This document shows positions 20,710-38,269 of a stretch of DNA of 64,000 bases, piece by piece (the stretch's first letter is position 1; every line of letters begins with the position of its first letter). The DNA comes from Escherichia coli O127:H6 str. E2348/69. GTDB taxonomy: Bacteria > Pseudomonadota > Gammaproteobacteria > Enterobacterales > Enterobacteriaceae. The position numbers and the translations under genes are program-made. The stretch lies in the NCBI RefSeq assembly GCF_000026545.1, contig NC_011601.1. The stretch is one strand, 5' to 3'. Below the pieces are notes generated by a model. That model was not told where the DNA came from. It searched no databases and was given only the letters and a program-made list of their open reading frames with translations.

Positions 20710-20830
20710 CGCTTTACCTTAGGGATAGAGCCTGTTCGCGTAGATATGACAGCCAAGAGCGGAGCGATGTTTCCACCACCATATCTCAGGCCCATATCAC
20801 TAAGACTCTTGTTTTGATTGCACGCGAATG

Positions 20831-20855: not shown

Positions 20856-20903
20856 TGTGATGGTTGCTGAATGCAAAAGCAGCAGCATATGTGAATATTA
20901 TGG

Positions 20904-21422: not shown

Positions 21423-21607
21423 CGTCTTCCTCTCTTGCCCTGTTTGACCATCAGGACGCCGTTAACTATTACGTGACGCTCGCCTTTGCTGTCTCGGTTG
21501 TACTTGAGCACTGTTCCTCTTGCGCAGGAAAGCATCCTCGCCACTTCGGTCTGATTGCCTCGTGTCTGGATAAGAAGCTCTGGTATCGTTTGAATTGTGG
21601 CGTTCAT
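21419..21607 (-). CDS. ninH: NinH-like protein
   Basis: Shares GNQTEVARxLxCxRGTVxKY motif with lambda NinH. Confidence 0.7.
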   Translation of the reverse strand: MNATIQTIPELLIQTRGNQTEVARMLSCARGTVLKYNRDSKGERHVIVNGVLMVKQGKRGRR

Positions 21608-21966
21608 GCGTTCTCCAGTTCGGTGATTTTTATTCCAAGCCTTCCGCCTGGTACTTTCACGCCACGAATTACGCGAATGTCATCGAATTGCTCGTCGTCT
21701 TCCGCAAATCCGGCGTGGATAAGGGAGTCGAGTAAACCCTTCAGGATGTTATCGAGGTCGCGGCGGCGGGAGTCTGGAACGTCTGCGATGACTTTGATGC
21801 GGAGTCGTGATTTGGTGAAAATGTCTAACTTGAGTTGGCGGATGATTTGCTGAACGTCTTTTCGGTATTTCTGGCCTTTATCGCTGATGTAGTATTGGCT
21901 TCCCCGTCTTCGCCAGTAGGTGTTCACCGACGGCGGGTATGGAAGCACAAACTGATATTCGTTCAT
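21604..21966 (-). CDS. rusA: Holliday junction resolvase RusA-like
   Basis: Conserved RusA motifs (PPSxNxYxR, DxRRRDLDN). Confidence 0.8.
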   Translation of the reverse strand: MNEYQFVLPYPPSVNTYWRRRGSQYYISDKGQKYRKDVQQIIRQLKLDIFTKSRLRIKVIADVPDSRRRDLDNILKGLLDSLIHAGFAEDDEQFDDIRVIRGVKVPGGRLGIKITELENA

Positions 21967-22253
21967 GACTTAATCTTCCCCTCCTTCAGCAGTATCGCCT
22001 GCGTCCTGATCACGCCTTCGAGGTGGTAAAGTCTGGCGTCTTTGTTGTCGAGAATCCGGGTGCGTCGGTCGATCTCCGCGTGGCAGTCACTACAAGCCCA
22101 TGCGCCGATCAGGTCGTCAGGCTTCATTCCCGTTCCGCAAATTCCAGCCATCCGGTAATGTGCCAGAACTGTAGTTTCAGGATTACCATTGCATATTCCG
22201 TAAATACGTACCTGGCATTCTCTGCCGCGTGCTTCTTTGCGTAGGTTAGCCAT
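21963..22253 (-). CDS. YbcO/DUF1364-like nin-region protein
   Basis: Cys/His-rich; similar to DLP12 YbcO-type proteins as recalled. Confidence 0.5.
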   Translation of the reverse strand: MANLRKEARGRECQVRIYGICNGNPETTVLAHYRMAGICGTGMKPDDLIGAWACSDCHAEIDRRTRILDNKDARLYHLEGVIRTQAILLKEGKIKS

Positions 22254-22522
22254 TATGGTTCACTCCAGTAATTCTCAATTGCAGCAGCCATTCTCTGCAT
22301 CCACTCAGCCAGCTTTAACGCGGCTTCTCTTTCAGAACCACATTTAGGGAAATCCTTCATTTCCATGCTGGCCTTATATGTTCTGAATGCCAGGTCTCCG
22401 GTAATAACCAACTCCTGATCAAGCACCGAGCGTTTATTCCGGTGTTGAACGTAATAGACAGATTCAGTCCGCATTTCTTCTCTGTCTTTTTTGAAGGAAA
22501 TAAGCTCAGAGAAATCACTCAT
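22253..22522 (-). CDS. Hypothetical nin-region protein (89 aa)
   Basis: ORF track; synteny. Confidence 0.4.
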   Translation of the reverse strand: MSDFSELISFKKDREEMRTESVYYVQHRNKRSVLDQELVITGDLAFRTYKASMEMKDFPKCGSEREAALKLAEWMQRMAAAIENYWSEP

Positions 22523-22691
22523 CGTCTTCTTCCTCGTACATTGAGCTATTCGGATCGCTCATCAGTTCTGCGCAGCAGTACTCACACACGTGAACTTCCA
22601 GCACATGCAGCTTCTGACCGCAGTTAGCGCACGTTAAAGCTCGCTCGACGCTTTCTTTCTGGTATTGAAGGGATTGGGATGGGCTAAGCAT
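22515..22691 (-). CDS. ninF: NinF-like protein
   Basis: Hand translation [40 protein letters not shown]... matches lambda NinF; below ORF-track length cutoff. Confidence 0.7.
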   Translation of the reverse strand: MLSPSQSLQYQKESVERALTCANCGQKLHVLEVHVCEYCCAELMSDPNSSMYEEEDDE

Positions 22692-23056
22692 TATTGGATT
22701 CTCTGCATCATGAGAAAGACAATCATGGCGGCGCGGAGGGGATTTTCATGTATAGCTCGCTTAGATTTACAGTAGGCCACACCGCGTGCACCCCACTCGT
22801 CTTCATCGAGATTGATAATGCTAATCCTGTATTTTTCAATAATCGGCCATGCGGCTGCTGGGTTTGCGCATGGGTTAAAGGATCCGCGCTCAACTTCTAC
22901 TTCAACTGCGTCTCCGTTTACAATGTCTCCCTCAAATGAGACAAACACCATATCGCCATTCTCACCTTCTTTGTAATCCGGTGATCCGTTATGAATGGCT
23001 TCGAATACCGCCACGTTAATTTCAAAATCACTTAACTGTGAATAATCCATTGTCAT
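22691..23056 (-). CDS. Hypothetical nin-region protein
   Basis: ORF track 22691..23092 trimmed to ATG at 23056 with GAGGAA RBS. Confidence 0.45.
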
Positions 23057-23229
23057 TTCCTCGCACGATTTCTTAGCCACCGGATATCCCACAGGTGAGC
23101 CGTGTAGTTGAAGGTTTTTACGTCAGATTCTTTCGGGATTGGCTTGCGTTTATTTCTGGAGCGTTTCGTTGGAAGGTATTTGCAGTTTTCGCAGATTATG
23201 TCGGTGATACTTCGTCGCTGTCGTCTCAT
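23053..23229 (-). CDS. ninE: NinE-like protein
   Basis: Internal-start product [23 protein letters not shown]... matches lambda NinE. Confidence 0.75.
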
Positions 23230-23753
23230 TCTGCCATCCTGACGCCCTGCCCGATCGCCATCAATGCCGCTTTGGATACGGTAGTAAACATCCGTCGAGG
23301 ACTGATGAACGGTCGCCAAATCAGCAGCATGGAGCCTTTGCTGTTTCCCTTCTTCTCCAGCCCTGTCGATGGTTCGATAAAATTAATCCGTCCATCAGTG
23401 ATAATACGAACTTCGTCGACACTCTCCAGAGCCTTGCTGAACCATCCGACTGACATATCCTCTGGCACAAGCATAACTACCGTCTGTCGCTGTTGTATGC
23501 ACTGCTCAGCGGCTTTTTCCACCCACGGCCTGATATTGCTATACGGTGGGTTATTCCAGATTGCACCGTGGCTTATCCACTCAGAATTTAGCGCGTCGTC
23601 GGCCTCAGTTAGCCAGTGAGCACACAGAGCATTTTTGTCGCTCGCTGCCGAATCCAGCCAGAATCCAAACTCAATATCCAGTGCATCAAAAAGCCAAAGC
23701 GGCGTTTGCCAGCAGTCCTTGTCGTGTGCTGGCGTATTTGATTTGATAGTCAT
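23226..23753 (-). CDS. Phage DNA N6-adenine methyltransferase (Dam-like, NPPY motif)
   Basis: NPPY catalytic motif; start trimmed to MTIKSNT at 23753, overlapping ninB stop. Confidence 0.75.
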
Positions 23754-24190
23754 GCAGCCCGATCTCCCCATCGCGCTTTCCATTCGAGAGCTAGTCGCGC
23801 TTCGTCTGACCACTTAACGCCACGCTCTGTACCGAATGCCTGTATAAGCTCTAATAGCTCCGCAAATTCGCCTACACGCATCCTGCTGGTTGACTGGCCT
23901 ATTACCACAAAGCCATTCCCGGCAAGGTTAGGAACAACATCCTGCTGCTTTAATGCTGCGGTAAACACACACTTCCAGCTTTCTGCATCCAGCCAGCGAC
24001 CATGCCATTCAACCTGACGAGAGACGTCACCTAAGCATGCCCATAGCTTCCTGTTTTGGTCTAAGCTGCGGTTGCGTTCCTGAATGGTTACTACGATTGG
24101 TTTGGTTGGGTCTGGAAGGATTTGCTGTACTGCGTGAATAGCGTTCTGCTGATGTGCCGGAGATCGAATTTCAAAGGTTAGTTTTTTCAT
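23750..24190 (-). CDS. ninB: NinB (Orf-family recombination mediator)
   Basis: Translation from MKKLTFEIRSPAHQQ... essentially identical to lambda NinB. Confidence 0.85.
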   Translation of the reverse strand: MKKLTFEIRSPAHQQNAIHAVQQILPDPTKPIVVTIQERNRSLDQNRKLWACLGDVSRQVEWHGRWLDAESWKCVFTAALKQQDVVPNLAGNGFVVIGQSTSRMRVGEFAELLELIQAFGTERGVKWSDEARLALEWKARWGDRAA

Positions 24191-24263
24191 GACTTCCCTC
24201 TCCCCCAAATAAAAAGGCCTGCGATTACCAGCAGGCCTGTTATTAGCTCAGTGATGTAGATGG

Positions 24264-25640
24264 TCATACGTCCGCCCCTTGTGCATATCGTCTGCCACGC
24301 GCAGCAGGTGCATTTGATGCTGTGCAAATCTGTCTGGCTTCATCCTGGTCACATGCAACAAAGTGTCCGTTGCAGAACCGCTGGTAAACCGTACCAAGCG
24401 AGCCAAAACGGTTTTTCGTCACGATGATTTCAGCAAATGGCGCGGCGCTACTGTTCTCGTCATATACCGCTTCCCGATAGAGCATGATGATTGAGTCTGC
24501 ATCCTGTTCAATGCTTCCTGAATCACGCAAATCTGCGTTTGTCGGGCGTTTGTTTGGTCGCTTCTCAACATCGCGCGAAAGCTGACTCAGGGAGATAACA
24601 GGCGTTTTCAGGTCTTTCGCCATCGCCTTCAGGCTTCCGGAGATGTGAGCAATTGCAAGGTCGTTGCGGTCTGCTTTCGGCTTCTCAATCAGGCCAAGAT
24701 AATCCGCCATGATGAGTGACAGGTTTGGATTTTCCTGTTTGTGCCGTTCTGCGATTGAGCGTATTTCTTCGACCGATAACCGCGAGGCATCGACTACCCA
24801 TACATCCAAATCTGCAAGCTGATTCATGCCGTTAGCAACGCGCGCCCAGCCTTCGTCATCCATCGATGCAGGATTTCGCAGCACGCTAACCGACATCCTC
24901 CCGGCGTTGGCAATGCTTCGCTCTGCAATCTGCAATGCGCTCATTTCCATTGAGAAAATCAATACCCCGCGCCTGACGTCAGAACCAGGAAGAACGCGGC
25001 TTGCAACGCCTTCGGCAATCTTTAGCGCCAGTTCGGTTTTCCCCATACCAGGACGAGCGGCGATTATCACCAGGTCTTCCGCGTTCATCCCTCCGGTGAT
25101 GGCGTCAAGTTCTTCGATTCCGGTCTTCAGGGTATCTGATTCCTCTCCGTTCCTCAGACGCCTGTCAAGCGTGTCAGTGTAGTCAGTAATGATTTCCCCT
25201 AACCGTACAGGTTTTACCTCGTCACGGGGCTTTCTGATGGCTGAGAGACGCTTTACAAGTTCATCCATCGCCTGACTCGATGCGTCGATGGTTCCGCTCT
25301 GAATTGGTTCACGCATTTCATCCATGATTTCCAGCACCAGACGGCGGTGATAGTTATCCGCGACCATTCCGGCATATCCCTTCAGGTTTGCGGCGCTCGG
25401 GCAGTTTTTGCTGGTCATCAGGATTGAGGTGAAATGCTCCTCTCCGCACGCCTCGGCAACCATCAGCGCGTCGATTAGGTTTCTGTTTCTCGCCTGCTTG
25501 CGGATAACCTCGAAGGCTTTCCGGTAGAGCGGAATTGAAAACGCTTCCGGCTCCAGTGTTGCCAGAACGTCGCTGGCGGTTGGAGTTAATCCACCAATCA
25601 GCAGGCCACCGATAACACTCGCTTCGATATCCTGTCTCAT
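24264..25640 (-). CDS. Replicative DNA helicase, DnaB-like (replaces lambda P)
   Basis: Walker A GMGKTE and DnaB-type C-terminal domain. Confidence 0.85.
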
Positions 25641-26584
25641 GCAATCCCCCTGTCTGCAAACTTCCCTTCCCGTACTCCCGTTAACGAATCTTCCCTCAGC
25701 AGGTAATCAAAATCTGCCGTCCAGCCAGTGTCGTTGTCTCCGAAGTAAAACGGCTTGGCCTGATGCACAAACGCCCTGACATACGCTCTGAAACCGTCCA
25801 CGTTTGGCGTTTTCAGTTGCGGGATGATTTTCTTCAGGCGGCGTTTGCGTTTCTCGTTGACCGCAACAGCGTGTGGCAGTCTGTCACCGACTTCGGTGTT
25901 GTAGGCGTTCAGGAAGGATTCGTAGTCGATTCGTTCTGCCTTGCGACGTTCAGGTTTAACCTGCCCATCGCCTCCCCCATTGGGGGGTAGGGGGGTATTA
26001 TTTATATTCTTGTTAATACCTTCTTGTTCATCATGTGCGGTTGTTTGTGCGGCTTCATGTGCGCTTTCATGTGCGGCATGTGCGCTGAAAGCCGCGCCAT
26101 TACTGGCTTCGTCATGTGCGGCATCATGTGCGGTTGTTTGTGCGGCTTCATGTGCGGGTAAATTGTCCATTTTTTGAGCATATTCATGGTAATTTGTGAT
26201 GGTGATCACACGACCTTTTTGCTTCTCTCCATCAATGGAGATCATCCCCTCTTTCACAAAAACCTGAAGCATCCGCTCAACCTGATCACGGCTTGCTGGC
26301 TTGCCATGTCTGTCGCATAACTGAAGACCTAAATCAGCTGCTGTCACAACCAGTTGACCGGGTTGCAGATGCCATTCATGACCTTTGAAATTCGCTTTGT
26401 ATGGCTTTCTGGCGGCATTCAGGAGAAGGTTTTCCCACAGGGTGCGAAGATAAACATCTTTCGCCCATGACTGTTTCAGAATGCTCCGGTACAACGGAAT
26501 GTAACCAGTTTTCTGGTTCTCCATCCTGTTGCTCCTGCGCTCGTGTGCGGCGCTGAAATCGTAGATTTTTGCTGTATTGCTCAT
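25637..26584 (-). CDS. O: Replication initiator O-like protein (iterons within coding sequence)
   Basis: N-terminus [10 protein letters not shown] similar to lambda O; internal repeated [11 protein letters not shown] peptides correspond to DNA iterons. Confidence 0.7.
26029..26158. repeat. Origin-like iteron array (two clusters of ~12-bp repeats, core catgtgcgg) with adjacent AT-rich tract
   Basis: Direct repeats tcatgtgcgg / ttgtttgtgcgg / cttcatgtgcgg seen inside the O gene; AT-rich stretch at ~25997-26027. Confidence 0.6.
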
Positions 26585-26586
26585 AA

Positions 26587-26859
26587 CTACCTGCCTTGAC
26601 GAAAGACCTTAAGAACATTGTTAAACTGACTTACGGATATGTCTTCTTTGAGCAGCTTTTCCAGAAATGCGTTTGGAATGAACGTATATCCCTCCTCTTT
26701 TGGTAGAGACGGAAGCAACGCCCTCGCCTCAGCCTTCAGAAGCTCAGTTCTGGCAACTTTCACAAAAGAGATTTGAGTTCTTTCATCAATGGAACGAAGG
26801 AAGCGCAAACGCTTAGCTTCTTTGTGTGTATCAGGTGGATTAAAGCCTTTGTTTCGCAT
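26587..26859 (-). CDS. Hypothetical protein between cII and O
   Basis: ORF track 26587..27024 trimmed to ATG at 26859 (GAGGT RBS) to avoid overlap with cII. Confidence 0.4.
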   Translation of the reverse strand: MRNKGFNPPDTHKEAKRLRFLRSIDERTQISFVKVARTELLKAEARALLPSLPKEEGYTFIPNAFLEKLLKEDISVSQFNNVLKVFRQGR

Positions 26860-26881
26860 ATAATTACCTCGCTGGATATTG

Positions 26882-27178
26882 TTAAAATTCCATCTGGGTT
26901 TGTTCAGAACGCTCGGTTGCCGCCGGGCGTTTTTTATTGGTGAGTCCATCAAGCGCATACTTAAAAGCCCTACTAATCGGACTGATGTCTGATGCCATTC
27001 CGAAAGCACACAAGACCGAAGCAATAAATCTCCAGTCCGTTCTGCTTATCTTCGATTCATGACAGCCAATCATCTTTGCCAGACCGCGCTGGGTAAGCGT
27101 TGACAGGTTGATGAGTAAATCTGTTTCTGCGCGATCAATTTCTCGCTGTGTTGGCTTGCTGTAACTTGCTTGTGTCAT
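26882..27178 (-). CDS. cII: cII-like transcriptional activator (mosaic: lambda-like C-terminus, divergent N-terminus)
   Basis: C-terminal LTNKKRPAATERSEQxQMEF matches lambda CII; N-terminal ~75 aa diverge. Confidence 0.7.
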   Translation of the reverse strand: MTQASYSKPTQREIDRAETDLLINLSTLTQRGLAKMIGCHESKISRTDWRFIASVLCAFGMASDISPISRAFKYALDGLTNKKRPAATERSEQTQMEF

Positions 27179-27316
27179 TTCTTAATATTTCCAATAGTGA
27201 ATAGTTAGTTGAAAGATATGCGTGGAAACGCATATGGCCTTAGTTGGTCAGATATATTGGGACTCGCTTTGTCAGCGACGTAGGACGAATGTCCATTGTG
27301 AAAATAGCGGTGTTAC

Positions 27317-27526
<210 letters not shown>

Positions 27527-27543
27527 TTAGTACATGCAACCAT

Positions 27544-27607
27544 TATCACCGCCAGAGGTAAAATAGTCAACACGCACGGTGTTAGATATTTATCCCTTGC
27601 GGTGATA
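27544..27607. promoter_or_regulatory. oR1-oR2-oR3 operators with overlapping pR/pRM (lambda-type)
   Basis: tatcaccgccagaggta, caacacgcacggtgtta, tatcccttgcggtgata read directly; match lambda oR sites. Confidence 0.85.
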
Positions 27608-27614
27608 GATTTAA

Positions 27615-28331
<717 letters not shown>

Positions 28332-28338
28332 CACGTAA

Positions 28339-28776
28339 ATGATTAAAGAACGTATTTCTTATATCATTCCGATTGCGATGGATGAAGGCAACCCAGTAAC
28401 TCCAGTTCTTATCTATGAAATGGATAAAGACTCCCATGAAGTGGATCTATCATTTGGCGCTTTTTTTATCGGCCTTAAGGCTACAAAAAAATATTCCATA
28501 GGCATTGAGGTTTTCAATGCTCAAGAAATACCGATACCAATTGACACAAAACTGTACTCCAACCATAAGTTTTTTACGGTAGCAGAAGCCAACGATGGAG
28601 AAACCATCGTATCAACTTCTATGAGAATTAACTTCCCAAGGGTGAAAATTATCAAGCCTGGGATATTCGAAGTTAGAGCATCACTGGTTAATCCTGATAA
28701 AGGCGAAGTAATTGATGTAAAAAGTTCGTTTTTTGACGTGAAGATAACAGGATCAGTTCGCGATGAGTTTAGATAA
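28339..28776 (+). CDS. Hypothetical 145-aa protein occupying the rexA position
   Basis: ORF track; starts 8 nt after cI stop; no recognisable family. Confidence 0.6.
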   Translation: MIKERISYIIPIAMDEGNPVTPVLIYEMDKDSHEVDLSFGAFFIGLKATKKYSIGIEVFNAQEIPIPIDTKLYSNHKFFTVAEANDGETIVSTSMRINFPRVKIIKPGIFEVRASLVNPDKGEVIDVKSSFFDVKITGSVRDEFR

Positions 28777-29134
28777 CAAGGTTGCTCAGCTTCGTCCAAA
28801 TCAAAACATATCTCGCCCAATTGGACACTATTCCACTGATGATGCATACTCACGGCATGGTGGAGGAAACGGCGGAGGTAACATGCTTGAGGCTAGAGTT
28901 GCAAAGCTAGAGTCTGATGTTGAATACATCAAGCGCGATCTCGCTGAAGTAAAGTCAGATATAAAATCTGTAGATTCTCGTCTGTCAGGTATTGAGACAA
29001 GCATTAGCTCAGCAAAAATCACCATCAAGGCATCTGCGGTCGTTGTCAGTTTCGTGTTCGCATTTTGCGCCTACATTTTTGGAAGTTATGTTTCCAAAAT
29101 CCTTGATGCCTTAAACGGACTCGTTCTTAAGTAA
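28763..29134 (+). CDS. Hypothetical 123-aa membrane-anchored coiled-coil protein occupying the rexB position
   Basis: Gly-rich linker GGGNGGGN, predicted coiled coil, C-terminal hydrophobic helix AVVVSFVFAFCAYIFGSYV; start overlaps upstream stop. Confidence 0.6.
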   Translation: MSLDNKVAQLRPNQNISRPIGHYSTDDAYSRHGGGNGGGNMLEARVAKLESDVEYIKRDLAEVKSDIKSVDSRLSGIETSISSAKITIKASAVVVSFVFAFCAYIFGSYVSKILDALNGLVLK

Positions 29135-29140
29135 CACACA

Positions 29141-29168
29141 ACCCGGCCTCAGCGCCGGGTTTTCTTTA
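29141..29168 (+). terminator. Rho-independent terminator (timm-like) ending the cI operon
   Basis: Hairpin cccggcctcagcgccggg followed by TTTTCTTT. Confidence 0.6.
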
Positions 29169-29324
29169 CCTCACGATCCCCTTCACCCAATAACACATAA
29201 CCAATTGTATTTATTTGAAAATTAATAGATACAACTCACTAAACATCGCAATTCAGATCTCTCGATCACCTCCCAAGCCACACACCCCTGCAAAAAAATA
29301 AATCTATATAAAAAACATACAGAT

Positions 29325-29390
29325 AACCATCTGCGGTGATAAATTATCTCTGGCGGTGTTGGCATAAATACCACTGGCGGTGATACTAAA
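29325..29390. promoter_or_regulatory. oL3-oL2-oL1 operators and pL promoter (lambda-type), firing toward N
   Basis: aaccatctgcggtgata, tatctctggcggtgttg, taccactggcggtgata; -35 ttggca and -10 gatact. Confidence 0.8.
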
Positions 29391-29635
29391 CACATCAGCA
29401 GGACGCACTACTCACCAGGGCGGTGAATATACAACGATTCAAGCAAGAATCTACGGCGCTGACAAAGCGCAATAACCAAAGTGAACTTTGGGGTGTGGTG
29501 AAGGGTTCATGGACGGGAATATGTCGCACGTAAAGCGGCGAGGCCTGCGGGACTATTGCCGAATTGAAGTAGGCCGAAACAGGTCGAAATGGGTCTCCCA
29601 CCTACCACACCACCAAAGTTCACCAGGAGGTCTAT

Positions 29636-30019
29636 ATGACACGCAGAACTCAGTTCAAAGGCAATTCACGTTCTCGTCGTCGTGAGCGTTTAAAGGCAAA
29701 GGCATTAGCTAACGGCGTACTGGCCCGCGAAGAAGCAATAAGTTCAGAAGTATTACACCGCCCTACTCTAAGCAGAGCGCAGATTCAGGCTAAAGGTACT
29801 CACGAAACGCCTGAGCGCATAGAAGACGCTAAGCCAATTAAGTTCATGGCACAGGACGTGATCTGGCAACAGAAAGAATACAGACGCAATCTGGAGCGAG
29901 CGGCCATTGTGTACGCGAATGAGTTTGGACATAAGCAACCAGAAACTGGTGTATGTCTTCCAAACGTAGCCATTTACGCGGCAGGATACCGGAAATCAAA
30001 ACAACTGACAGCAAGATGA
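29636..30019 (+). CDS. N: Antiterminator N-like protein (P22 gp24-type, Arg-rich motif)
   Basis: Arg-rich N-terminus NSRSRRRERLKAKA and C-terminus AIYAAGYRKSKQLTAR resemble P22 gene 24 product; first gene after pL. Confidence 0.6.
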   Translation: MTRRTQFKGNSRSRRRERLKAKALANGVLAREEAISSEVLHRPTLSRAQIQAKGTHETPERIEDAKPIKFMAQDVIWQQKEYRRNLERAAIVYANEFGHKQPETGVCLPNVAIYAAGYRKSKQLTAR

Positions 30020-30077
30020 CTTGTGTTGGTCGCCAGAAAATGAAATTAGGCAGCAAACCACTTATTTGAGGTGAGAT

Positions 30078-30548
30078 ATGACAAAATCATGGAGCGTACC
30101 TTTTCCTGAATCAGAAACTGAACATGAGGGAATGCCTGTTTTCTGGAGATTCCAGGCGACAGTTGAAGAAGATGGAATCAAAATATTCGCACTTCAATAT
30201 ATAGCTTTTCATCAGACAGAGCATTATGCATGGTTGGTTCCTGCGCATTGGATTGTTAATTTTAAACCAGCACCAAATCAGTGGTTACAGGAATGGAAAC
30301 AAAAGAGAAATAGATATGCAATTAAGAAAGTAGCAAAAAATGCAGAAAGATCTTTTGCATTCCCAACGAAGAAACTTGCCATTGAAAGTTTATTGCGCCG
30401 AAAGAAATACCATTTAATGAGAATCAAACAAGATTTGGCTGTTGTATCAACTCTTGTTGATGGGATGAAGAATATTGATACATCAACACCAGATATTGAA
30501 TATAACTTTGGACACAACCAAGAAACAGAAAATTGGGTATTCTACTAG
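30078..30548 (+). CDS. Hypothetical 156-aa protein in the ral/sieB slot
   Basis: ORF track; AT-rich by eye; followed by hairpin terminator. Confidence 0.5.
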   Translation: MTKSWSVPFPESETEHEGMPVFWRFQATVEEDGIKIFALQYIAFHQTEHYAWLVPAHWIVNFKPAPNQWLQEWKQKRNRYAIKKVAKNAERSFAFPTKKLAIESLLRRKKYHLMRIKQDLAVVSTLVDGMKNIDTSTPDIEYNFGHNQETENWVFY

Positions 30549-30573
30549 GCCGCATAGTCGGCCTTTATTTTTG
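30548..30573 (+). terminator. Putative rho-independent terminator
   Basis: Hairpin aggccgcatagtcggcct plus T-run. Confidence 0.45.
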
Positions 30574-30594
30574 GCATAAACAACAGAGGCTAAC

Positions 30595-30891
30595 ATGGGA
30601 TTTAAAGGTACTGAAGGTAAGTGGGAAATAATGATGGATGGGGATGAGATTAAAATCATCCAGGCAGACTCTCTTGAAAATGGCACAGGCTGGCGTTCGT
30701 ATATTGCAATCTGTGAGGAAGTTCAATGTATTGAAGATGCCAATCTAATAGCGGCAGCACCTGACCTTCTCGAAGCACTTCAGTTATTACTTAATCAATC
30801 CAAAAATAGAACAACGACAACATATCCAGAATGGTATGGAGCTGTTAATAAAGGTCTTGCAGCAATCAGAAAAGCTCTTGGGGATAAGTAA
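30595..30891 (+). CDS. Hypothetical 98-aa protein
   Basis: ORF track; AT-rich by eye. Confidence 0.45.
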   Translation: MGFKGTEGKWEIMMDGDEIKIIQADSLENGTGWRSYIAICEEVQCIEDANLIAAAPDLLEALQLLLNQSKNRTTTTYPEWYGAVNKGLAAIRKALGDK

Positions 30892-31079
30892 TGAAAGTAA
30901 AAATAACTGCTTCTAACACCAGTTTTATTAGTGTTGGTGATATTACAGAAGTAATAACAAACCATGATGGAACCCAAGTTATGTGGTCTGATCTTTGTAA
31001 AAGATATGAGCGAGTTAGTTGGTGTAAACTCGTATGGGGCGTCGAATACGAAGAAATACCTGAAATGCATGACGAATAA
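30891..31079 (+). CDS. Hypothetical 62-aa protein (ATGA-coupled to upstream gene)
   Basis: ORF track. Confidence 0.4.
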   Translation: MKVKITASNTSFISVGDITEVITNHDGTQVMWSDLCKRYERVSWCKLVWGVEYEEIPEMHDE

Positions 31080-31213
31080 GCACTGTGTATTCATTCCAAC
31101 GAGTGAATACACGGAGCAATGTCGCTCGTAACTAAACAGGAGCCGACTTGTTCTGATTATTGGAAATCTTCTTTGCCCTCCAATGTGAGGGCGATTTTTT
31201 TAACGGAGGATAT

Positions 31214-32182
31214 ATGAGTGAAGTAACAGATTTAGTTGTTATTGAAAAAGCAAATGCAATGACTGTATTTCAGTCTGCCGACCAGATTGAAGAAATCCTT
31301 CAAAAGGTTGAACGTGAAGTTATGTCCTTTGTGCCTGATATCACAACGGCAAAGGGCAGAAAGGAGATCGCTTCTCTGGCGTATAAAGTTGCGCAGACGA
31401 AAACATATCTCGATGGCCTTGGCAAAGACCTTGTTGCTGAACTGAAGGAAATTCCAAAGCTAATTGATGCCAACCGCAAGACAGTGCGCGATCGCCTTGA
31501 TGAGCTGAAAGCCAAGGCGCGCCAGCCTCTTACTGATTATGAGGAAGAACAGGCGCGGATTAAAGCCGAAGAAGAAGCTAAGGCAGCAGCTGAAGCTCTC
31601 GCAAAGCAAATTGAGTCTGACCATGAAATAGCGATTTTGATGGATCGCGAATTTGACCGCCAAAGAGAAGAGGCAAGACTCAAAGCGGAGCAGGAAAAGC
31701 GAGAGCATGAAGAACGCTTAAAAAGAGAAGCTGAAGAGAAAGCCAGAGCAGAAGCCGAAGCAAAGGCAAAAGCCGAAATTGAAGCAGCAGCAAGGCGAGA
31801 AGCAGAAGCTAAGGCCGCAGCGGAACGTGCAGAGCGTGAACGCATTGAAGCCGAGCAACGAGCACAGCGCGAAGCAAAAGAGGCAGCAGAACGAGCTGAA
31901 AGAGAAAAGCAGGCGGCAATTGAAGCAGAACGCCGAAAAGCACAGGAGGAGGCTGAACGAATCCGGCGCGAGGCTGAAGCAAAAGAGCAAGCCAGAATAG
32001 CAGAAGAAAAAAGAATCAAGGACGAAGAAGAGCGTAGAGCAAAGGATAAAGCTCACCGGAAAGAAGTAAATAACAAAATACTTGCTGACCTTATCAAGGT
32101 TGGTGCATCAGAAGATGTTGCTAAAAATATCATAACAGCCATCGCAAAAGGCGAAGTATTCGCAACAAAAATAACCTACTAA
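31214..32182 (+). CDS. Coiled-coil protein with long low-complexity E/K/R/A-rich region
   Basis: ORF track 31160..32182 trimmed to ATG 31214 (GGAGGA RBS). Confidence 0.5.
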   Translation: MSEVTDLVVIEKANAMTVFQSADQIEEILQKVEREVMSFVPDITTAKGRKEIASLAYKVAQTKTYLDGLGKDLVAELKEIPKLIDANRKTVRDRLDELKAKARQPLTDYEEEQARIKAEEEAKAAAEALAKQIESDHEIAILMDREFDRQREEARLKAEQEKREHEERLKREAEEKARAEAEAKAKAEIEAAARREAEAKAAAERAERERIEAEQRAQREAKEAAERAEREKQAAIEAERRKAQEEAERIRREAEAKEQARIAEEKRIKDEEERRAKDKAHRKEVNNKILADLIKVGASEDVAKNIITAIAKGEVFATKITY

Positions 32183-32205
32183 TAAACCAACATAAGGAAC
32201 CACCC

Positions 32206-32337
32206 ATGATTTACGCAATCGCGGGAGGCGCTCGCATGGGTGCCTTCCAACTAAATGAATCTTTACTTGAACGAATCACCCGTAAATTACGTGACGGATG
32301 GAAAAGAGTTGAGGTCTTATTATGCGCAATGAAATAG
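32206..32337 (+). CDS. cIII: cIII-like protein
   Basis: Hand translation MIYAIAGGARMGAFQLNESLLERITRKLRDGWKR... shares ESLLERITRKLRDGWKR with lambda CIII. Confidence 0.6.
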   Translation: MIYAIAGGARMGAFQLNESLLERITRKLRDGWKRVEVLLCAMK

Positions 32338-32474
32338 CCATCAATCACCAGATGCTTCGTGCTGCACAGAACAAAGCAGTAATAGCCAGATTTATTGGTG
32401 ATTCAAAAATGTGGCTTGAAGCAAATAAAGCGATGAAATCAGCTATCAACCTTCCGTGGTATCGCAGGAAATGA
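32322..32474 (+). CDS. kil: Kil-like small protein
   Basis: Hand translation MRNEIAINHQMLRAAQNKAVIARFIGDSKMWLEANKAMKSAINLPWYRRK resembles lambda Kil (FIGDEKMF region). Confidence 0.45.
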   Translation: MRNEIAINHQMLRAAQNKAVIARFIGDSKMWLEANKAMKSAINLPWYRRK

Positions 32475-32728
32475 GTTTTACAGATAACTGGTCAGACGAA
32501 GAATTCATTCGTCAGATGAAAGAATTAATCGGTAACGAAGGAGATATTCATGTCACTTGCAACCACAGTGAAGGAGAGCAAGTTACAGAGACGCATGTAC
32601 ACGCAGAAAGCTCTCTGGTATCGCCATAATGGTGACCGCGAAGGAATGCGGGTATGCCTTAATTTGTCCCGAGTCGAAGTATTAAATCAGCGTTATTTCC
32701 TTGGGCCGTGTCCATTCTGAGGTGAATT

Positions 32729-33436
32729 ATGGATTTGAACAAATTCGATGAGCCATTCAGCCCTGAAGATATAGAATGGAGAATACAGCAAAGCGGTAAA
32801 ACACGCGATGGCAAGGTGTGGGCTATGGTGCTGGCTTATGTCACGAACAGGGCAATCATGAAACGCCTTGACGATGTTTGCGGCAAAGCAGGATGGCGCA
32901 ATGAATACCGAGATATTCCCAACAACGGAGGCGTTGAATGCGGCATATCAATCAGGATTGATTCCGAATGGGTAACCAAATGGGATGCTGCTGAAAACAC
33001 GCAGGTAGAAGCCGTAAAAGGTGGTCGTTCCGGTGCAATGAAGCGCGCTGCCGTTCAGTGGGGAATCGGTCGGTATCTGTATAACCTTGAGGAAGGTTTC
33101 GCACAAACATCTCTCGATAAAAAGCAGGGATGGCACAGGGCAAAACTCAAGGATGGAACAGGATTTTACTGGCTCCCTCCATCGCTGCCGGGATGGGCAA
33201 TCCCAGCATCAGATAACAAACCATCACCAGAAAATACCAACCAGACATCTCCATCGGTTGACTGCGAACAAATCCTGAAAGACTTCAGCGATTATGCATC
33301 AACAGAAACTGACAAGAAAAAACTCATCGAGCGTTATCAGCGTGACTGGCAATTAATGGCTGGCAACGAGGAGGCACAGGCTAAATGCGTTCAGGTAATG
33401 AACATCAGAGTTAACGAACTAAAACAGGCGGCATAA
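32729..33436 (+). CDS. Single-strand annealing protein, Rad52/Sak-like
   Basis: Rad52-type core recognised; occupies bet/erf position. Confidence 0.65.
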   Translation: MDLNKFDEPFSPEDIEWRIQQSGKTRDGKVWAMVLAYVTNRAIMKRLDDVCGKAGWRNEYRDIPNNGGVECGISIRIDSEWVTKWDAAENTQVEAVKGGRSGAMKRAAVQWGIGRYLYNLEEGFAQTSLDKKQGWHRAKLKDGTGFYWLPPSLPGWAIPASDNKPSPENTNQTSPSVDCEQILKDFSDYASTETDKKKLIERYQRDWQLMAGNEEAQAKCVQVMNIRVNELKQAA

Positions 33437-33904
33437 ATGTCTCACTTGGACGGAATTATTAAAAGATTCGAGTCCAGCTACAAAGTTAATGAAACAACAG
33501 GTTGCTGGGAGTCTACCTATTCAAAAAACAAAGGAGGATACACAAAATTTGTAGCCTTTGGCGTAACAATGCTTTCTCATCGGGTTGCTTTTGAGCTTTA
33601 TCACTCCCCCATTCCATCTGGGAAGATGGTTTGCCACAAATGCGATAACCAATGCTGCGTTAATCCTGAACATCTCTTTTTAGGTAGCGCGCAAGAAAAC
33701 ATGGACGACAAGATAGCAAAAGGAAGGCATCGTGGAGCCAAGAAAGGTCATGCTCATCATGGTGCAAAATTAACAGAGTGGCAGGTTATAGAAATTAGGA
33801 AAAGACTCTCTGAAAAAGAGAGTCAGTACAAGATAGCAAAAGACATGGGTGTATCTCAATCAATTATAAGCAACATAAAAACTGGCAAGAGGTGGAGCAA
33901 ATGA
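33437..33904 (+). CDS. HNH homing endonuclease (free-standing, between annealase and ssb)
   Basis: HNH motif [26 protein letters not shown]. Confidence 0.75.
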
Positions 33905-34407
33905 GTTCTCGCGGGATAAATAAGGTGATTATCCTTGGTCGGGTAGGACAAGACCCGGAAGTTCGATACTCACCATCAGGAACAGCGTTCGCTAACCTGA
34001 CAATAGCCACGTCAGAACAATGGCGAGATAAAAATACTGGCGAGCAAAAGGAATTGACTGAATGGCATCGTGTTGCTGTATCCGGGAAACTGGCTGAGGT
34101 CGTGGGGCAGTATGTGAAAAAAGGTGATCAGATTTATTTCGAGGGAATGCTGAGAACCAGAAAGTGGAAAGACCAGTCAGGGCAAGACCGTTACACAACC
34201 GAGGTTCATGTCGGAATTAATGGCGTGATGCAAATGCTTGGCGGCATTGGCGACAGCAAACAACAAGCAGCCAGCAGGCAATCACAGAAGCCACAGCAGC
34301 AATCATCACCAGCACAACACAACGAACCTCCGATGGATTTTGACGACGATATACCCTTTGCACCAGTAACTCTCCCCTTCCCTCGTCACGCTATTCACGC
34401 AATTTAA
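33892..34407 (+). CDS. ssb: Single-stranded DNA-binding protein
   Basis: OB-fold SSB N-terminus, Gln/Pro-rich linker and acidic DDDIPF tail. Confidence 0.85.
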
Positions 34408-34420
34408 TCAGGAGAAAATC

Positions 34421-34714
34421 ATGCCAGCGCCTCTGTATGGTGCGGATGACCCGCGCCGCTGTTCCGGCAATTCCGTATCGGAGGTGCTGGATAAATTCAG
34501 AAAAAACTACGATCGAATAATGTCTCTACCGCAGGAAACGAAAGAGGAAAAGGAATTTCGCCACTGTATATGGCTTGCAGAGAAAGAAGAACGCGAGCGA
34601 ATTTACCAGACATCAATCCGACCATTCCGCAAAGCCACATATACCCACTTCCCTGAAATTGACCCGCGCCTGCGTAATTACCGCTCACGTTATGGCGCTA
34701 TCAGTAATGACTGA
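34421..34714 (+). CDS. Hypothetical protein
   Basis: ORF track. Confidence 0.4.
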
Positions 34715-34724
34715 GGAATTTACC

Positions 34725-34892
34725 ATGAGAGGACTTGCATACAATCCCGGCATTCTTCCGGCAGAAATGATTATTCGCCAACGCGTAAAGCCAATGCCAT
34801 CGAGAGAGGAATTGCTTAAGAGAAATTCTTCTCCGTCAGTGAATCAAAACAAATATCTGAATGCGATGTGGCGCAAAGGAGGCAACCAGTGA
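34725..34892 (+). CDS. Small hypothetical protein
   Basis: ORF track 34575..34892 trimmed to ATG 34725 with GAGGA RBS. Confidence 0.3.
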
Positions 34893-35158
34893 GTGAGTCA
34901 AAATGCCAAATTAATGGCAACAAGATAGAACCGTGCGCGGCGTTGGCAAAATCTCTCGAATATGGAAATCCAACATTCAAGAGTAAAGGCATATTTATCC
35001 CGGAGCGTGTGAACATAAACACCGGCGAGTCATGCATAGATATTGCTCAAATTCACTCGGGGAAATATATCGGTCGTGGCGTTGCAATGTGCTTTTGCCC
35101 GTTCTGTGGTGAAAGTTTGAAAACGTGGGAAGCGGAGGCAGCCAGTGAGCAAAATTGA
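34868..35158 (+). CDS. Hypothetical Cys-rich protein
   Basis: ORF track; CxxC pair near C-terminus. Confidence 0.35.
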
Positions 35159-35783
35159 CCATCAGGCACTGCGTGAGGCGGCAGAGCAGGCAATGCATGA
35201 CGACTGGGGATTTGACGCGGACCTTTTCCATGAGCTGGTAACACCATCGATTGTGCTGGAACTGCTGGATGAACAGGAAAGAAACCAGCAATACATCAAA
35301 CGCCGCGACCAGGAGAACGAGGAGATTGCGCTTACGGTTGGGAAGCTGCGTGTTGAGCTTGAAGCAGCAGAGAACAACCTTATTGATAGTGAATGCCATG
35401 TTGCTGAACTGGAAGAAGCTCTACGCGATAAGCAGGCGTTACTTGAAGCCTCAGAAAAGCGCAACGCAAAATTACAAAGCGAGAATGCATACATCCGCAA
35501 CCGGTACAAAGAACTGGACCTATTAATCGGGAAAAACATTCTGGTCATGCAGGCTGCCATTATCGAATGGCAGGCAACTGGCGACGCTAAGAGCGGACTA
35601 GCATGGATTTATAACACACTGTTTGGCCCTGGCGAATTACCGGACGAATCTGAGAAAGATGCTCAGGCCTACTTTAATCGCAAATATGCACCGATTGACG
35701 AAAAGCTTATGGCGCTTCACAAGTGGTTTTGGGAACAAAGTGAAGCCGAGCGCGCCGCTGGCATTCGCATCAAAGGAGAGTGA
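35145..35783 (+). CDS. Ea22-like early protein (coiled coil)
   Basis: Resembles lambdoid Ea22-family proteins as recalled. Confidence 0.5.
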   Translation: MSKIDHQALREAAEQAMHDDWGFDADLFHELVTPSIVLELLDEQERNQQYIKRRDQENEEIALTVGKLRVELEAAENNLIDSECHVAELEEALRDKQALLEASEKRNAKLQSENAYIRNRYKELDLLIGKNILVMQAAIIEWQATGDAKSGLAWIYNTLFGPGELPDESEKDAQAYFNRKYAPIDEKLMALHKWFWEQSEAERAAGIRIKGE

Positions 35784-35784
35784 G

Positions 35785-35976
35785 ATGAACGGACAAATCT
35801 CAATTGTTCGACCGGGAGCATGTGACGATTGCGAGATACGAATGATTATTCGTCTGGCGAGGGGGAAAACAATAACTGCTCTCATTACTCCAGAAAATCT
35901 CGCATTAGCATTAACCGGAAAGTCAGACCTGCCAGTAGAGCTAAAGCTGCGAAATGTTGAGATTAAGGTGAAATAG
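35785..35976 (+). CDS. Small hypothetical protein
   Basis: ORF track 35623..35976 trimmed to ATG 35785. Confidence 0.35.
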   Translation: MNGQISIVRPGACDDCEIRMIIRLARGKTITALITPENLALALTGKSDLPVELKLRNVEIKVK

Positions 35977-35978
35977 CT

Positions 35979-36374
35979 ATGACCACTATTACCAAAGAGC
36001 GACTGCTGACAATCAAGCAGTGGCGCGAAACATACGGACCGGGTAGCAACGTTGTACTGCCAGCAGAAGAAGCGGAAGAACTGGCACGAATTGCTCTGGC
36101 ATCGCTGGAAGTCGAGCCGATAGGTTTCCGTTGCAGGCGCAATGATAACCTTGGTGATTGGAGTTACGTATATCATCGAGAGCCAGATGATTTTGAGCGC
36201 AAACATTTAGTGATAGAGGGCATTTACGCCGCCCCTCCAGCGCAAGTAGTACCGAAAGAAAAACCAATGCCTAATCCTCTTAGCATGTACGCGGTTGATG
36301 CTGTTGCCGCTATTGCAGAGGTGAGAGGCTGGAACGCCTGCCGTGCCGCTATGCTTCAGGGGAAAGGAGACTGA
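35979..36374 (+). CDS. Hypothetical protein; N-terminus paralogous to 36584..37216
   Basis: Shared MTTITxE...ELARIALASLE segment with downstream DUF551-type protein. Confidence 0.45.
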   Translation: MTTITKERLLTIKQWRETYGPGSNVVLPAEEAEELARIALASLEVEPIGFRCRRNDNLGDWSYVYHREPDDFERKHLVIEGIYAAPPAQVVPKEKPMPNPLSMYAVDAVAAIAEVRGWNACRAAMLQGKGD

Positions 36375-36375
36375 T

Positions 36376-36573
36376 ATGGATAAAAACACCACTGCTTACT
36401 GGAATCTGTCACTTGATACCGAATGCCCAAAATGCGGTCACAATTTCGATCTGCTTTGTGACGCTGATTTCTGGGAGTTTTCTGGAGCTAAACAGGCATG
36501 TGAAGAAATAAAAGGTTACGAAACATGCTGTCCAGAATGTAACCATGAATTTAAAACAGATTTCGTGTATTGA
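36376..36573 (+). CDS. Small zinc-ribbon protein (two CxxC pairs)
   Basis: ORF track 36343..36573 trimmed to ATG 36376; CPKCGH...CCPECNH. Confidence 0.4.
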   Translation: MDKNTTAYWNLSLDTECPKCGHNFDLLCDADFWEFSGAKQACEEIKGYETCCPECNHEFKTDFVY

Positions 36574-36583
36574 GGCATAACAA

Positions 36584-37216
36584 ATGACCACTATTACCAG
36601 AGAACAGGCACAGAAAATTATTGAAGCAGCCGATGAGGTTATTAGTGCGCTTGCCGGAACTAACGAGGATGTTCACCCTGGTAGCGATAACATGCTACGC
36701 CTGTGGGATGACCTGAATGACCGTTACGCGCCCCCTGAAGTTGTGCGTGAGCTGGCACGAATTGCACTGGCATCACTGGAAGCAGAGCCTGTAAGCCAAA
36801 CTTACAACTTGCCAGAATTAATCGAAGGGATGGAAGTTTCCATTGATGTAAGCACTTGTGATGCTGATTTAGGTAATCGCTATTTCGGTACCGTCACCGA
36901 GGCGTTAGAACTTGATACAGCCAAGAATGGTTACATCCTCCTAGTTCAGGACGCAGAGCCAAACTTCGATGTAAATGGCAACTCTCCGGTAATTCCGGGC
37001 GGTTGGATAAGCTGTAGTGAGCGAATGCCGGATAGCAAAACAGCCGTTCTTGTTGCCAGGGAGTTTGACAGGAAAGGTGACTGGCGAATGAAATGGGCGA
37101 CTTACATCCCGGGGCATCCTGACGCTAATGATGGGTGGGTAATACCTGGTGCGTCGTGGATACCATCACACTGGATGCCGCTACCAGAACCGCCGCAGGA
37201 GGTTAACCATGGCTAA
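36584..37216 (+). CDS. DUF551-type protein
   Basis: C-terminal W-rich DUF551-like region (WISCSERMPDS...WMPLPEPP). Confidence 0.5.
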   Translation: MTTITREQAQKIIEAADEVISALAGTNEDVHPGSDNMLRLWDDLNDRYAPPEVVRELARIALASLEAEPVSQTYNLPELIEGMEVSIDVSTCDADLGNRYFGTVTEALELDTAKNGYILLVQDAEPNFDVNGNSPVIPGGWISCSERMPDSKTAVLVAREFDRKGDWRMKWATYIPGHPDANDGWVIPGASWIPSHWMPLPEPPQEVNHG

Positions 37217-37316
37217 CCTGCAACTTGCCGTCAAAGGTGAATAACAATCCTCGCACTCGCGGGGATTTCTTTTATCTGAACTCGCTACGGCGAGTTTTGT
37301 TTTATGGAGATGATAA

Positions 37317-37484
37317 ATGCACTTCCGAGTCACAGGTGAATGGAATGGAGAACCATTCAACAGAGTTATCGAAGCGGAGAACATCAACGACTGCTATGAC
37401 CACTGGATGCTGTGGGCGCAGATAGCACATGCAGACGTAACCAATATTCGAATTGAAGAACTGAAAGAACACCAAGCCGCCTGA
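37317..37484 (+). CDS. Small hypothetical protein (55 aa)
   Basis: Hand translation MHFRVTGEWNGEPF...; followed by hairpin plus T-run terminator. Confidence 0.4.
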   Translation: MHFRVTGEWNGEPFNRVIEAENINDCYDHWMLWAQIAHADVTNIRIEELKEHQAA

Positions 37485-37498
37485 TGGCGGTTTTTTAT
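37476..37498 (+). terminator. Putative rho-independent terminator
   Basis: Hairpin ccgcc-tgat-ggcgg followed by TTTTTTATT. Confidence 0.5.
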
Positions 37499-37541
37499 TA
37501 CCTGATTTGCAGGTTCGATTCCCTATTCGGAGATAGCACTC

Positions 37542-37742
37542 ATGCAACACGAATTACAGCCTGATTCACTGGTTGATTTGAAATTCATCATGGCCGATAC
37601 TGGCTTCGGTAAAACCTTCATCTATGACCGGATTAAGTCCGGCGACCTGCCAAAAGCCAAAGTTATCCACGGGCGAGCAAGATGGTTATATCGTGACCAT
37701 TGTGAATTCAAAAATAAGCTCTTAAGCCGCGCCAATGGGTAA
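37542..37742 (+). CDS. torI: Excisionase / recombination directionality factor TorI
   Basis: 66-aa translation matches the KplE1 TorI sequence as recalled; located at prophage right end next to attR. Confidence 0.75.
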   Translation: MQHELQPDSLVDLKFIMADTGFGKTFIYDRIKSGDLPKAKVIHGRARWLYRDHCEFKNKLLSRANG

Positions 37743-37816
37743 AATAGCGGGTAAAATATTTCTCACATCTAAAAAACTCCATTCCAATCAATCCCCTGCC
37801 GCTTCAAGTAGATGTC

Positions 37817-37830
37817 TGCAGGGGACACCA
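37817..37830. other. attR core: duplicated 3' end of tRNA-Arg argW
   Basis: ctgcaggggacacca matches the 3' acceptor end of argW as recalled; phage-type genes stop here. Confidence 0.5.
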
Positions 37831-38269
37831 GATACCCTTCAAACGATATCTACCTTCACCCCGTAAAAGATAAGTTTGGCAGCACATTTGCCCTATCTAC
37901 TCATTTTTCCTGCAACAGGTTGAAATCTCAACACGGTCAGAAAACGCTGATGACTAAACAGCCCTGGGCCGGGCGATGTAACCATCACACACAATCCTGA
38001 TCGCGAAATATGGCGTGACTTGATACTTCACTCCACAATGCTTTCCTTGATGAATTCGCAGGCCCGTGATACACGGGACAGGTCGCTGAATTACGACAAT
38101 GCCCTGGAAATCAGCGAGCCGTGTATCCAGAGTACATTTGAGCGACTGTACCAGAACATGAATGAGGCGTTTGGATTAGGCGATTATTAGCAGGGCTAAG
38201 CATTTTGGTATTATTATTTTCCGGTTGAGGGATATAGAGCTATCGACAACAACCGGAAAAAGTTTACGT

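Follow-up and report, generated by a model that had tools for sequence, protein, structure and literature searches.

Why do two separate stretches of the tRNA-Arg gene argW flank torI at the right-hand end of a prophage in Escherichia coli O127:H6 str. E2348/69, and are both of them products of integration? The question arises from a 64,000-nucleotide stretch of contig NC_011601.1, referred to here as the window, with positions counted from its first letter. The initial annotation of this DNA had noted one argW-derived piece upstream of torI and another downstream. It had regarded only the downstream piece as attR and had proposed that the upstream piece was either the relic of a previous or tandem integration or a part of the recombination-site architecture. 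The two flanking matches are real: each is exact and each is present once in the window (Table 1). Fragments of tRNA 3' ends are found at attR of tRNA-integrating elements, and the downstream 15-mer is exactly of that kind. The upstream piece is unlike them: its place is on the phage side, the 3' end of the tRNA is missing from it, and free phages conserve it.

The window matches the E2348/69 record NZ_CP059840.2 at 100%. The prophage in argW is complete and full-size, with a length of ~43 kb, and its left end (intS, attL and argW) lies ~5.5 kb outside window position 1. Its annotated early genes are lambdoid and include a cI/LexA-family repressor, cro, cII, N, cIII, kil and recombination genes; Q, lysis genes, two phage tRNAs, terminase and structural genes of the baseplate/contractile-tail type are annotated elsewhere in the prophage. 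By the same annotation torI forms the right end of the prophage, and the csc sucrose cluster comes next on the host side. The torI product, WP_001163428.1, is annotated in both E2348/69 and a K-12-type strain, and the translations of the torI ORF and of Sf6 gene 18 are identical. The recombination directionality factors (RDFs) of HK620 and Sf6 have likewise been reported as 100% identical to TorI (PMC3509656). The region is the right end, or attR side, of an integration module of the KplE1/HK620/Sf6 type, ordered torI - attP - intS, and the module itself is an already known system, textbook-level for this phage group. The E2348/69 prophage shares with KplE1 (CPS-53), HK620 and Sf6 an identical TorI, the same core (15 of the 16 nt given for K-12), the same order, with torI at the right end and intS by argW at the left, and an attL with the same five TorI pentamers and TAAA arm-type sites (PMC2951348). 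The carrier is different: a ~43-kb prophage with baseplate/contractile-tail-type genes here, as opposed to the 10-kb KplE1 remnant or a P22-like podovirus.

The downstream piece is the crossover core, and it marks the ordinary attR of this known prophage type. As had been proposed, both pieces were aligned to argW, with the gene of prophage-free E. coli as reference (L001 1441-1515; gene end ...ctaaTTGCAGGTTCGATTCCTGCAGGGGACACCA), and both matched it exactly, over nt 46-61 and nt 61-75, respectively. The downstream piece, CTGCAGGGGACACCA, has a single exact copy in the window and reproduces the 3' T-stem, the 3' strand of the acceptor and ACCA. Some 4,000 E. coli genomes match the chromosomal side of attR, and where the prophage is absent the first matching base is 37816, within an annotated tRNA-Arg. 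Because homology to prophage-free strains begins exactly at this base, we assign the attR core to 37816-37830. The piece had initially been placed at 37817-37830; the match holds, but that start is one base late, and the 15-mer quoted for it begins at 37816.

The same 15 nt end the intact argW in attL, where they adjoin intS; this sequence lies outside the window, and the record annotation places intS and intact tRNA-Arg (argW) at NZ_CP059840.2 1593253-1594646. The initial expectations that attL and intS would be located beyond the window start, that only the downstream piece acts as attR and that no integrase is present at the torI end were thus borne out. intS is directly downstream of argW in the same orientation. 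Following argW, the phage arm of attL contains in succession GTTCG, GTCCG, GGTTCG, GGTTCG and GATCG, a TTGACA -35 box, GGGTAAAA-type repeats and the intS start, and the TorI pentamers and TAAA arm-type sites overlap the intS promoter. KplE1 attL has been described with the corresponding TorI sites, promoter and arm-type sites (PMC2951348). The direct repeat is 15 nt long in E2348/69, where the host flank is the csc sucrose cluster, and 16 nt in K-12; the K-12 repeat is one nucleotide longer because the K-12 host flank happens to start with T.

Table 1. Features at the torI end of the argW prophage, in window coordinates.
Feature	Position	Strand	Basis or remark
Prophage, right-hand ~37.8 kb	1..37830	.	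Integrated in argW, E. coli E2348/69
55-aa ORF, last small ORF of the leftward early (pL) operon	37317..37484	+	3' end common to lambda, P22, 933W and HK022
Intrinsic terminator-like hairpin and T-run	37474..37497	+	Terminator scan
16-nt argW copy TTGCAGGTTCGATTCC	37507..37522	+	Exact copy of argW nt 46-61
Conserved box core GTTCGATTCCC	37513..37523	+	Last C absent from argW
TorI-type pentamer GTTCG	37513-37517	+	Inside the box core
TTCGAT	37514-37519	+	Motif common to attP core arm and argW T-loop
Weaker second pentamer ATTCG	37525..37529	+	12 nt after the first pentamer
torI ribosome-binding region GGAGATA	37530..37536	+	Kept in all box-carrying lineages
torI, 66-aa excisionase (recombination directionality factor)	37542..37742	+	ORF; annotated torI
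attR P arm and core	37719..37830	+	Limits from KplE1 in-vitro substrate; primer attR-IHF2 at 37719
43-aa ORF	37735..37866	+	Homologue of HK620 hkaB / Sf6 gene 17; crosses core into host DNA
Arm-type-like GGGTAAAAT repeats, two	37737-37745, 37749-37757	+	TAAA arm-type motif (PMC2951348)
Degenerate T-loop-like core arm	37804-37816	+	Core-arm comparison
attR core CTGCAGGGGACACCA	37816-37830	+	argW nt 61-75; 15-nt direct repeat with attL

The phage side of the attR core carries a likeness to argW of its own. In 17 modules the 13 nt immediately left of the core are T-loop-like and read TTnGAT(GT) in the register of the argW T-loop, with a per-position match to argW of 0.71-0.94 except at the variable n; in a Klebsiella phage this core arm reads CAGGTTAGATGTA. 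Because these 13 nt are already a degenerate copy of the T-loop, the upstream piece is a second copy. The 43-aa ORF that spans the core is probably not a gene.

The upstream piece, TTGCAGGTTCGATTCC, likewise occurs only once in the window and matches argW with 0 mismatches, covering the end of the variable loop, the 5' T-stem, the T-loop and the first two bases of the 3' T-stem. It stands 294 bp from the attR core, with the entire torI ORF between. Eleven of its 16 bases are generic tRNA T-loop consensus. We estimate by simple counting that a perfect 16-mer match to a gene of 75 nt would arise some 300 bp or less from that gene's att core with a probability of ~1e-5, and the match to argW is far beyond chance. 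Identity to argW ends at nt 61, where a C follows the 16-mer and argW has T (the sequence after the 16-mer reads CTATTCGG), and on the 5' side matches are only scattered.

The upstream 16-mer is a phage-borne part of the module and lies between the terminator of the early operon and the torI ribosome-binding site. Positions 37440-37499 match lambda, P22, Stx phages (933W) and HK022, among many other phages, at 96-100%, and homology to lambda and P22 ends at 37496-37501; the site equivalent to the hairpin is annotated 'terminator' in the records of P22 and phage L. Because generic lambdoid homology stops at about 37500, the torI-attP-intS module starts there, and the 16-mer follows 7 nt after its left edge. 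In K-12-type genomes, homology to the window is confined to 37492-37830, and the 338-bp torI-attR segment is 98% identical to K-12. The identical 16-mer is found in the same place in K-12 KplE1, in the circular genomes of the free phages Sf6 and HK620 and, base for base, in 45 of the 52 readable IMG/VR copies.

How strictly this element is kept was judged from relatives that had been gathered by excisionase protein similarity and not by motif. The first set consisted of 16 genome loci from a scan with TorI and of phages from blastn; the second comprised 80 viral contigs from a scan with the g341c excisionase (48% identity to TorI). Diversity came from the 16 genome loci, the motif-independent g341c scan and one motif search, whereas the scan of viral contigs with TorI returned 100%-identical copies only. 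An 11-nt core, GTTCGATT(C/T)CC, is kept though the excisionases are only 48-88% identical and the neighbouring DNA is unrelated. The consensus of the leaders, ...(N3)GTTCGATT(C/T)CC-N4-6-GGAGAT-N6-9-ATG, places this box 4-6 nt upstream of the ribosome-binding site, and leaders of this form were found in Escherichia, Citrobacter, Enterobacter, Pantoea, Edwardsiella, an Erwinia phage and many Salmonella-type phages. The box was present in 12 of 19 loci of the first set, and its core in 35 of 44 distinct g341c-type leaders, whose excisionases are about 48% identical to TorI. Mean pairwise identity across eight lineages was 90% for the 14-nt box, a value that is somewhat inflated by placing the box with a regular expression although MAFFT alignments without that step agree; the corresponding values were 84% for torI codon positions 1+2, 59% for position 3 and 33% for the 20 nt upstream. 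A pattern search that combined the box with the ribosome-binding site gave 23 matches, of which 19 were TorI-like genes and 4 true tRNA genes.

The conserved part of the box is not the whole of its match to argW. Left of GTTCG, the three positions that would correspond to the argW T-stem are variable (CAG, CAA, CCT, TCA); the final C of the invariant core has no counterpart in argW, and the TTG that extends the identity to 16 nt in E. coli is lineage-specific. The DNA upstream of the box also differs by lineage: some have a terminator, of the lambda type or another, and others an A-rich stretch or a truncated P22-type xis. Taken as an alignment result, the core GTTCGATT(C/T)CC shows the signature of purifying selection in most module lineages. 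Modules without the box are those of Klebsiella phage RCIP0114, Tatumella (where it is degenerate), Arsenophonus and three Enterobacter/Pantoea loci, and in a deletion variant without the box the terminator is joined straight to GGAGATA. In Pantoea stewartii, Edwardsiella and Enterobacter relatives, the second pentamer, 12 nt downstream of the first and just ahead of the ribosome-binding site, reads GTTCG or GTCCG. Box number differs as well, with a tandem pair at a 16-nt distance in the Erwinia phage and a single copy in g341c-type leaders. No comparable T-loop copy was found upstream of the excisionase in distant phages with integrases of the IntS/P4 family (Pseudomonas VW-6S, Yersinia YeP6, phiV10 and Acinetobacter AM106). 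The initial annotation had held that the upstream match would be chance similarity if alignment to argW did not extend the identity. The identity indeed goes no further, but chance alone does not explain the match, since the element is conserved.

We tentatively favor the reading, to which we give a little less than an even chance, that the box is a cis-element or operator in the torI leader, a binding site for TorI and/or IntS that controls torI. Its GTTCG is one of the TorI recognition pentamers (GTTCG/GATCG/GTCCG) that were defined experimentally by mutagenesis (PMC2951348). This pentamer overlaps TTCGAT, which is common to the IntS core-type arms and the argW T-loop and which, because it occurs in both the attB left arm and the attP core arm, is likely to be an IntS core-type determinant. 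TorI and/or IntS on the box would obstruct transcripts coming into torI from the early operon, and blocking these transcripts could provide feedback on the amount of excisionase, as happens with other excisionases that are also transcription regulators, such as P4 Vis and P2 Cox. Apl of phage 186 is described as both an excisionase and a transcription regulator (PMC7498355), and TorI represses the intS promoter, PintS (PMC2951348). These regulator excisionases are small winged-helix/HTH proteins that bind direct repeats and repress promoters of recombination genes (PMC7498355; PMC2951348); autoregulation of torI through the box is what we infer here. In the KplE1 work the torI promoter, PtorI, was called uncharacterised, and control of excision was proposed to act on the RDF gene (PMC2951348).

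Comparison of the box with the TorI sites I1-I5 of attL speaks on both sides of the operator reading. The box shares GTTCG with these sites, GGTTCG is present in two attL sites of the E2348/69 prophage, and site I1, GTTCGCTCCCA, and the box, GTTCGATTCCC, agree at 9 of 11 positions. The CAGTTCG context of attL sites is contained in TCAGTTCGATTCCC, the sequence of some leaders, and TCAGTTCG, found in some leaders, is the usual attL context. Against an operator stands the next base: the box has A behind GTTCG, where each of the five attL sites read has a pyrimidine. In addition, TorI binds cooperative arrays and the box is single in most lineages, several apparently functional modules are without it, and near it there is no IntS arm-type (TAAA) site. 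The box also differs from I1-I5 in standing in the torI leader rather than in an att arm, and it is conserved far more strictly than the attL TorI sites, which suggests an additional or different constraint. The switching on of torI is an acknowledged open step in KplE1-type excision control (PMC2951348), and the 11-nt box is the obvious place to look. The point worth keeping is that a conserved T-loop-like 11-mer precedes torI as a candidate control site for excisionase expression.

Several other readings of the box have to be weighed against an operator. That it is the relic of a previous or tandem integration at argW in the E2348/69 chromosome, as the initial annotation had suggested, could explain an exact 16-nt argW identity so near attR, yet the same 16-mer belongs to KplE1, to the free phages Sf6 and HK620 and to most readable IMG/VR copies, its core is conserved and not decaying, and it lies on the phage side of the attR core. 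Moreover, the match stops at tRNA nt 61 where an attR-type remnant would run to the 3' end, and prophage-free strains have no such fragment downstream of argW. We give this reading next to no chance, and the main result is a clean-up, in which one fragment turns out to be attR and the other no scar of integration. The second initial suggestion, recombination-site architecture, fares only slightly better. A required accessory role in the attR/attP complex, such as that of an additional IntS core-type or TorI site by which the intasome is shaped, would fit the presence of GTTCG, the TTCGAT common to the attP core arm and the attB left arm and the conservation of the box along with the module. 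However, excisive recombination of KplE1 proceeds in vitro with a 135-bp attR, whose left primer, CTCTTAAGCCGCGCCAATGG (PMC3509656, section 3.6), maps to 37719, about 200 bp downstream of the 16-mer, and the published TorI sites are all on attL and not on attR (PMC2951348). The box is dispensable for the recombination chemistry itself. With the 294 bp and the torI ORF that separate it from the core, and with modules that lack it, we regard a required accessory site as very improbable. Like an IntS core-type half-site, the box is identical over 13-16 nt to argW nt 46/49-61, the arm that adjoins the overlap in attB. An overlap region and an inverted partner arm are absent beside it, since CTATTCGGAGATA follows, without TGCAGGG and without the GACAC arm.

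The GenBank records of two relatives label this DNA as a promoter. In HK620 a 'phage integration' promoter (1664-1702) with a cII protein_bind feature (1689-1701) covers the box, and so does a feature in the Sf6 record that reads 'pI; possible integrase expression promoter'; PtorI being uncharacterised (PMC2951348), a cII-activated module promoter analogous to pI, with TTGCCTGATTTGC as its cII site, has to be considered. The repeats are spaced by N5 (TTAC-N5-TTGC in E2348/69 and TTGC-N5-TTGC in HK620), as against the canonical N6, and the canonical TTGC-N6-TTGC of the E2348/69 prophage is at 27156-27169 in the 5' region of cII, the expected place of pRE. A scan of 37250-37900 gave no sigma-70-like promoter, and the TTGC repeats are absent from the Edwardsiella, Pantoea, Erwinia and g341c lineages, all of which keep the box. 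Such a promoter would also supply excisionase during lysogenisation, which would be counter-productive. These comparative data argue against the cII-promoter label in HK620 and Sf6, which would make it a mislabelling, and we consider a module promoter quite unlikely. An RNA element in the torI leader, acting either as a mimic of a T-loop or through weak pairing of AUUCC with the ribosome-binding GGAGAU that damps translation, has only a slight probability in our judgement. The pairing AUU.CC/GG.GAU is possible in 9 of 9 aligned leaders, but their consensus structure is worth only -1.5 kcal/mol and shows next to no covariation, folding of the single sequence gave z = -0.4, and the leader is without a complementary 3' T-stem and hence has no T-arm. 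More probable than these, though still unlikely, is an ancient footprint without present function, that is, an argW T-arm that was captured once during module assembly by aberrant or Int-promoted recombination and then carried along. Its 13-16 nt are identical to the bases just before the core in attB, the module targets that very tRNA, and the box sits at the extreme edge of the module, where joins to unrelated upstream DNA occur; its fusion to a truncated P22-type xis in lineages of the g341c and K-12 types shows that illegitimate joins have happened there, and some lineages have lost or degraded it. A neutral relic, however, should decay like the adjacent 20 nt or the third codon positions, and the box stays at about 90% and is kept where excisionases differ at up to half of their residues. 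In addition, the CAG before GTTCG that would mark argW ancestry is variable, and the invariant part ends in a non-argW C.

The operator that we favor might, in a more particular form, be a mimic. The torI leader could imitate the attB left half-site, i.e. the argW T-loop, and be bound by IntS and/or TorI, which would tie excisionase synthesis to whether the recombinase is free or engaged at att sites. On this reading the mimic would be frozen across Enterobacterales because the host tRNA is unable to change. We hold it to be distinctly unlikely. If true, it would constitute a feedback loop that is new for any integrase/excisionase pair, with the corollary that the T-loop of the target tRNA gene is the source of TorI-type pentamers (GTTCG) or is also read by them.

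The torI end was also searched for tRNA-like objects. ARAGORN found none there, its only hits in the window being Thr and Asn at about 20 kb, and Rfam gave no tRNA match at E<=10. Rfam did match the sRNA STnc130 on the minus strand, but at 24.8 bits against a gathering score of 55 and mainly over the terminator hairpin, and this candidate was rejected. Rejected too was a T-stem formed between the upstream and downstream pieces, whose pairing is not kept in lineages with the core gtaTGCAGG and which gave no significant fold.

Where the likeness of the box to argW comes from is a separate matter from what the box does. Derivation from argW is possible but unproven. Since illegitimate joins clearly took place at the junction where the box sits, the attB left arm could plausibly have been captured there in ancient times. 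Alternatively, the likeness may simply follow from TorI and IntS recognition sequences that are themselves T-loop-like. All TorI-like modules found have an argW-type core (TGCAGGG...), and the part of the box that would be diagnostic of argW, the T-stem bases, is the variable part. Together the upstream and downstream pieces cover argW nt 46-75 and overlap by one base, which might suggest a 30-nt tRNA fragment interrupted by torI. We rejected such a split tRNA: the core already has its own T-loop-like left arm, and it is GTTCGATT(C/T)CC alone that is conserved, not the T-stem bases.

In some lineages, the DNA immediately 5' of the box, the T-loop-like conserved element upstream of torI, holds the initial ~20 codons of a xis gene of P22 type (MESHSLTLDEACAFLKIS...). 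A stop terminates the remnant in K-12; in the record of phage g341c the remnant runs on in frame into the TorI-like gene, the two being annotated as a single 87-aa protein. These remnants show that a P22-type xis-int module was replaced by the torI-attP-intS module through an illegitimate join within xis.

On the other side of torI, the phage-side arm adjoining the att core retains TTnGATGT in the register of the argW T-loop (TTCGATTC), both in the window and in 16 other modules. The likeness between attP and attB therefore extends, in degenerate form, past the 15-16-nt "core" of the literature. Its retention suggests TTnGATGT as the core-type recognition element for the integrase IntS. A 43-aa ORF homologous to HK620 hkaB and Sf6 gene 17 spans the core; because it does so, its C-terminus is altered upon integration. 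This ORF is more likely an artefact of annotation than a true gene.

The box itself varies in number. Erwinia phage Midgardsormr38 carries two tandem copies (CAGGTTCGATTCCC), 16 nt apart, and an Enterobacter sp. prophage (L092) has a second, degenerate copy upstream of xis. A natural deletion variant of the leader has lost the box, the upstream terminator being joined straight to cctGGAGATAatgatATG; phages of this type would serve as ready-made controls for box function. At the start of torI, Rfam returned a sub-threshold match to the enterobacterial sRNA STnc130 (24.8 bits vs a gathering threshold of 55; E 0.08-0.2), most likely owed to the terminator hairpin.

Locations of features in the window and in related loci
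Feature	Location	Strand	Remark
xis remnant	L002 1425-1475; L008 2473-2532; L091		K-12; phage g341c; upstream of torI (L091)
Phage-side core arm	window 37804-37816		equivalent positions in 16 other modules
43-aa ORF	window 37735-37866		hkaB / gene 17 homologue
Tandem box	L006 2484-2515		Erwinia phage Midgardsormr38
Box-deletion leader	L205, L208, L212, L200, L206		IMG/VR contigs
STnc130-like match	window 37465-37592	-	antisense to torI start; terminates at terminator hairpin
cII-type repeat TTGCTGTAACTTGC	window 27156-27169	+
tRNA-Thr(TGT), tRNA-Asn(GTT)	window 19987-20142	-
csc cluster, dsdX and dsdA	window 38020-43400		record features

Elsewhere in the prophage, a canonical cII-type repeat lies within the 5'-terminal part of cII and is directed toward the repressor gene; it is the pRE-like site expected of the E2348/69 argW prophage. 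Two phage-borne tRNA genes have the Q antiterminator/HNH gene on one side and the lysis genes on the other. On the host side of attR, the record annotates a sucrose-utilisation cluster (cscB, cscK, cscA, cscR) and, beyond it, a truncated dsdX and a frameshifted dsdA. By contrast with K-12, in which dsdC immediately follows attR, the E2348/69 flank lacks dsdC.
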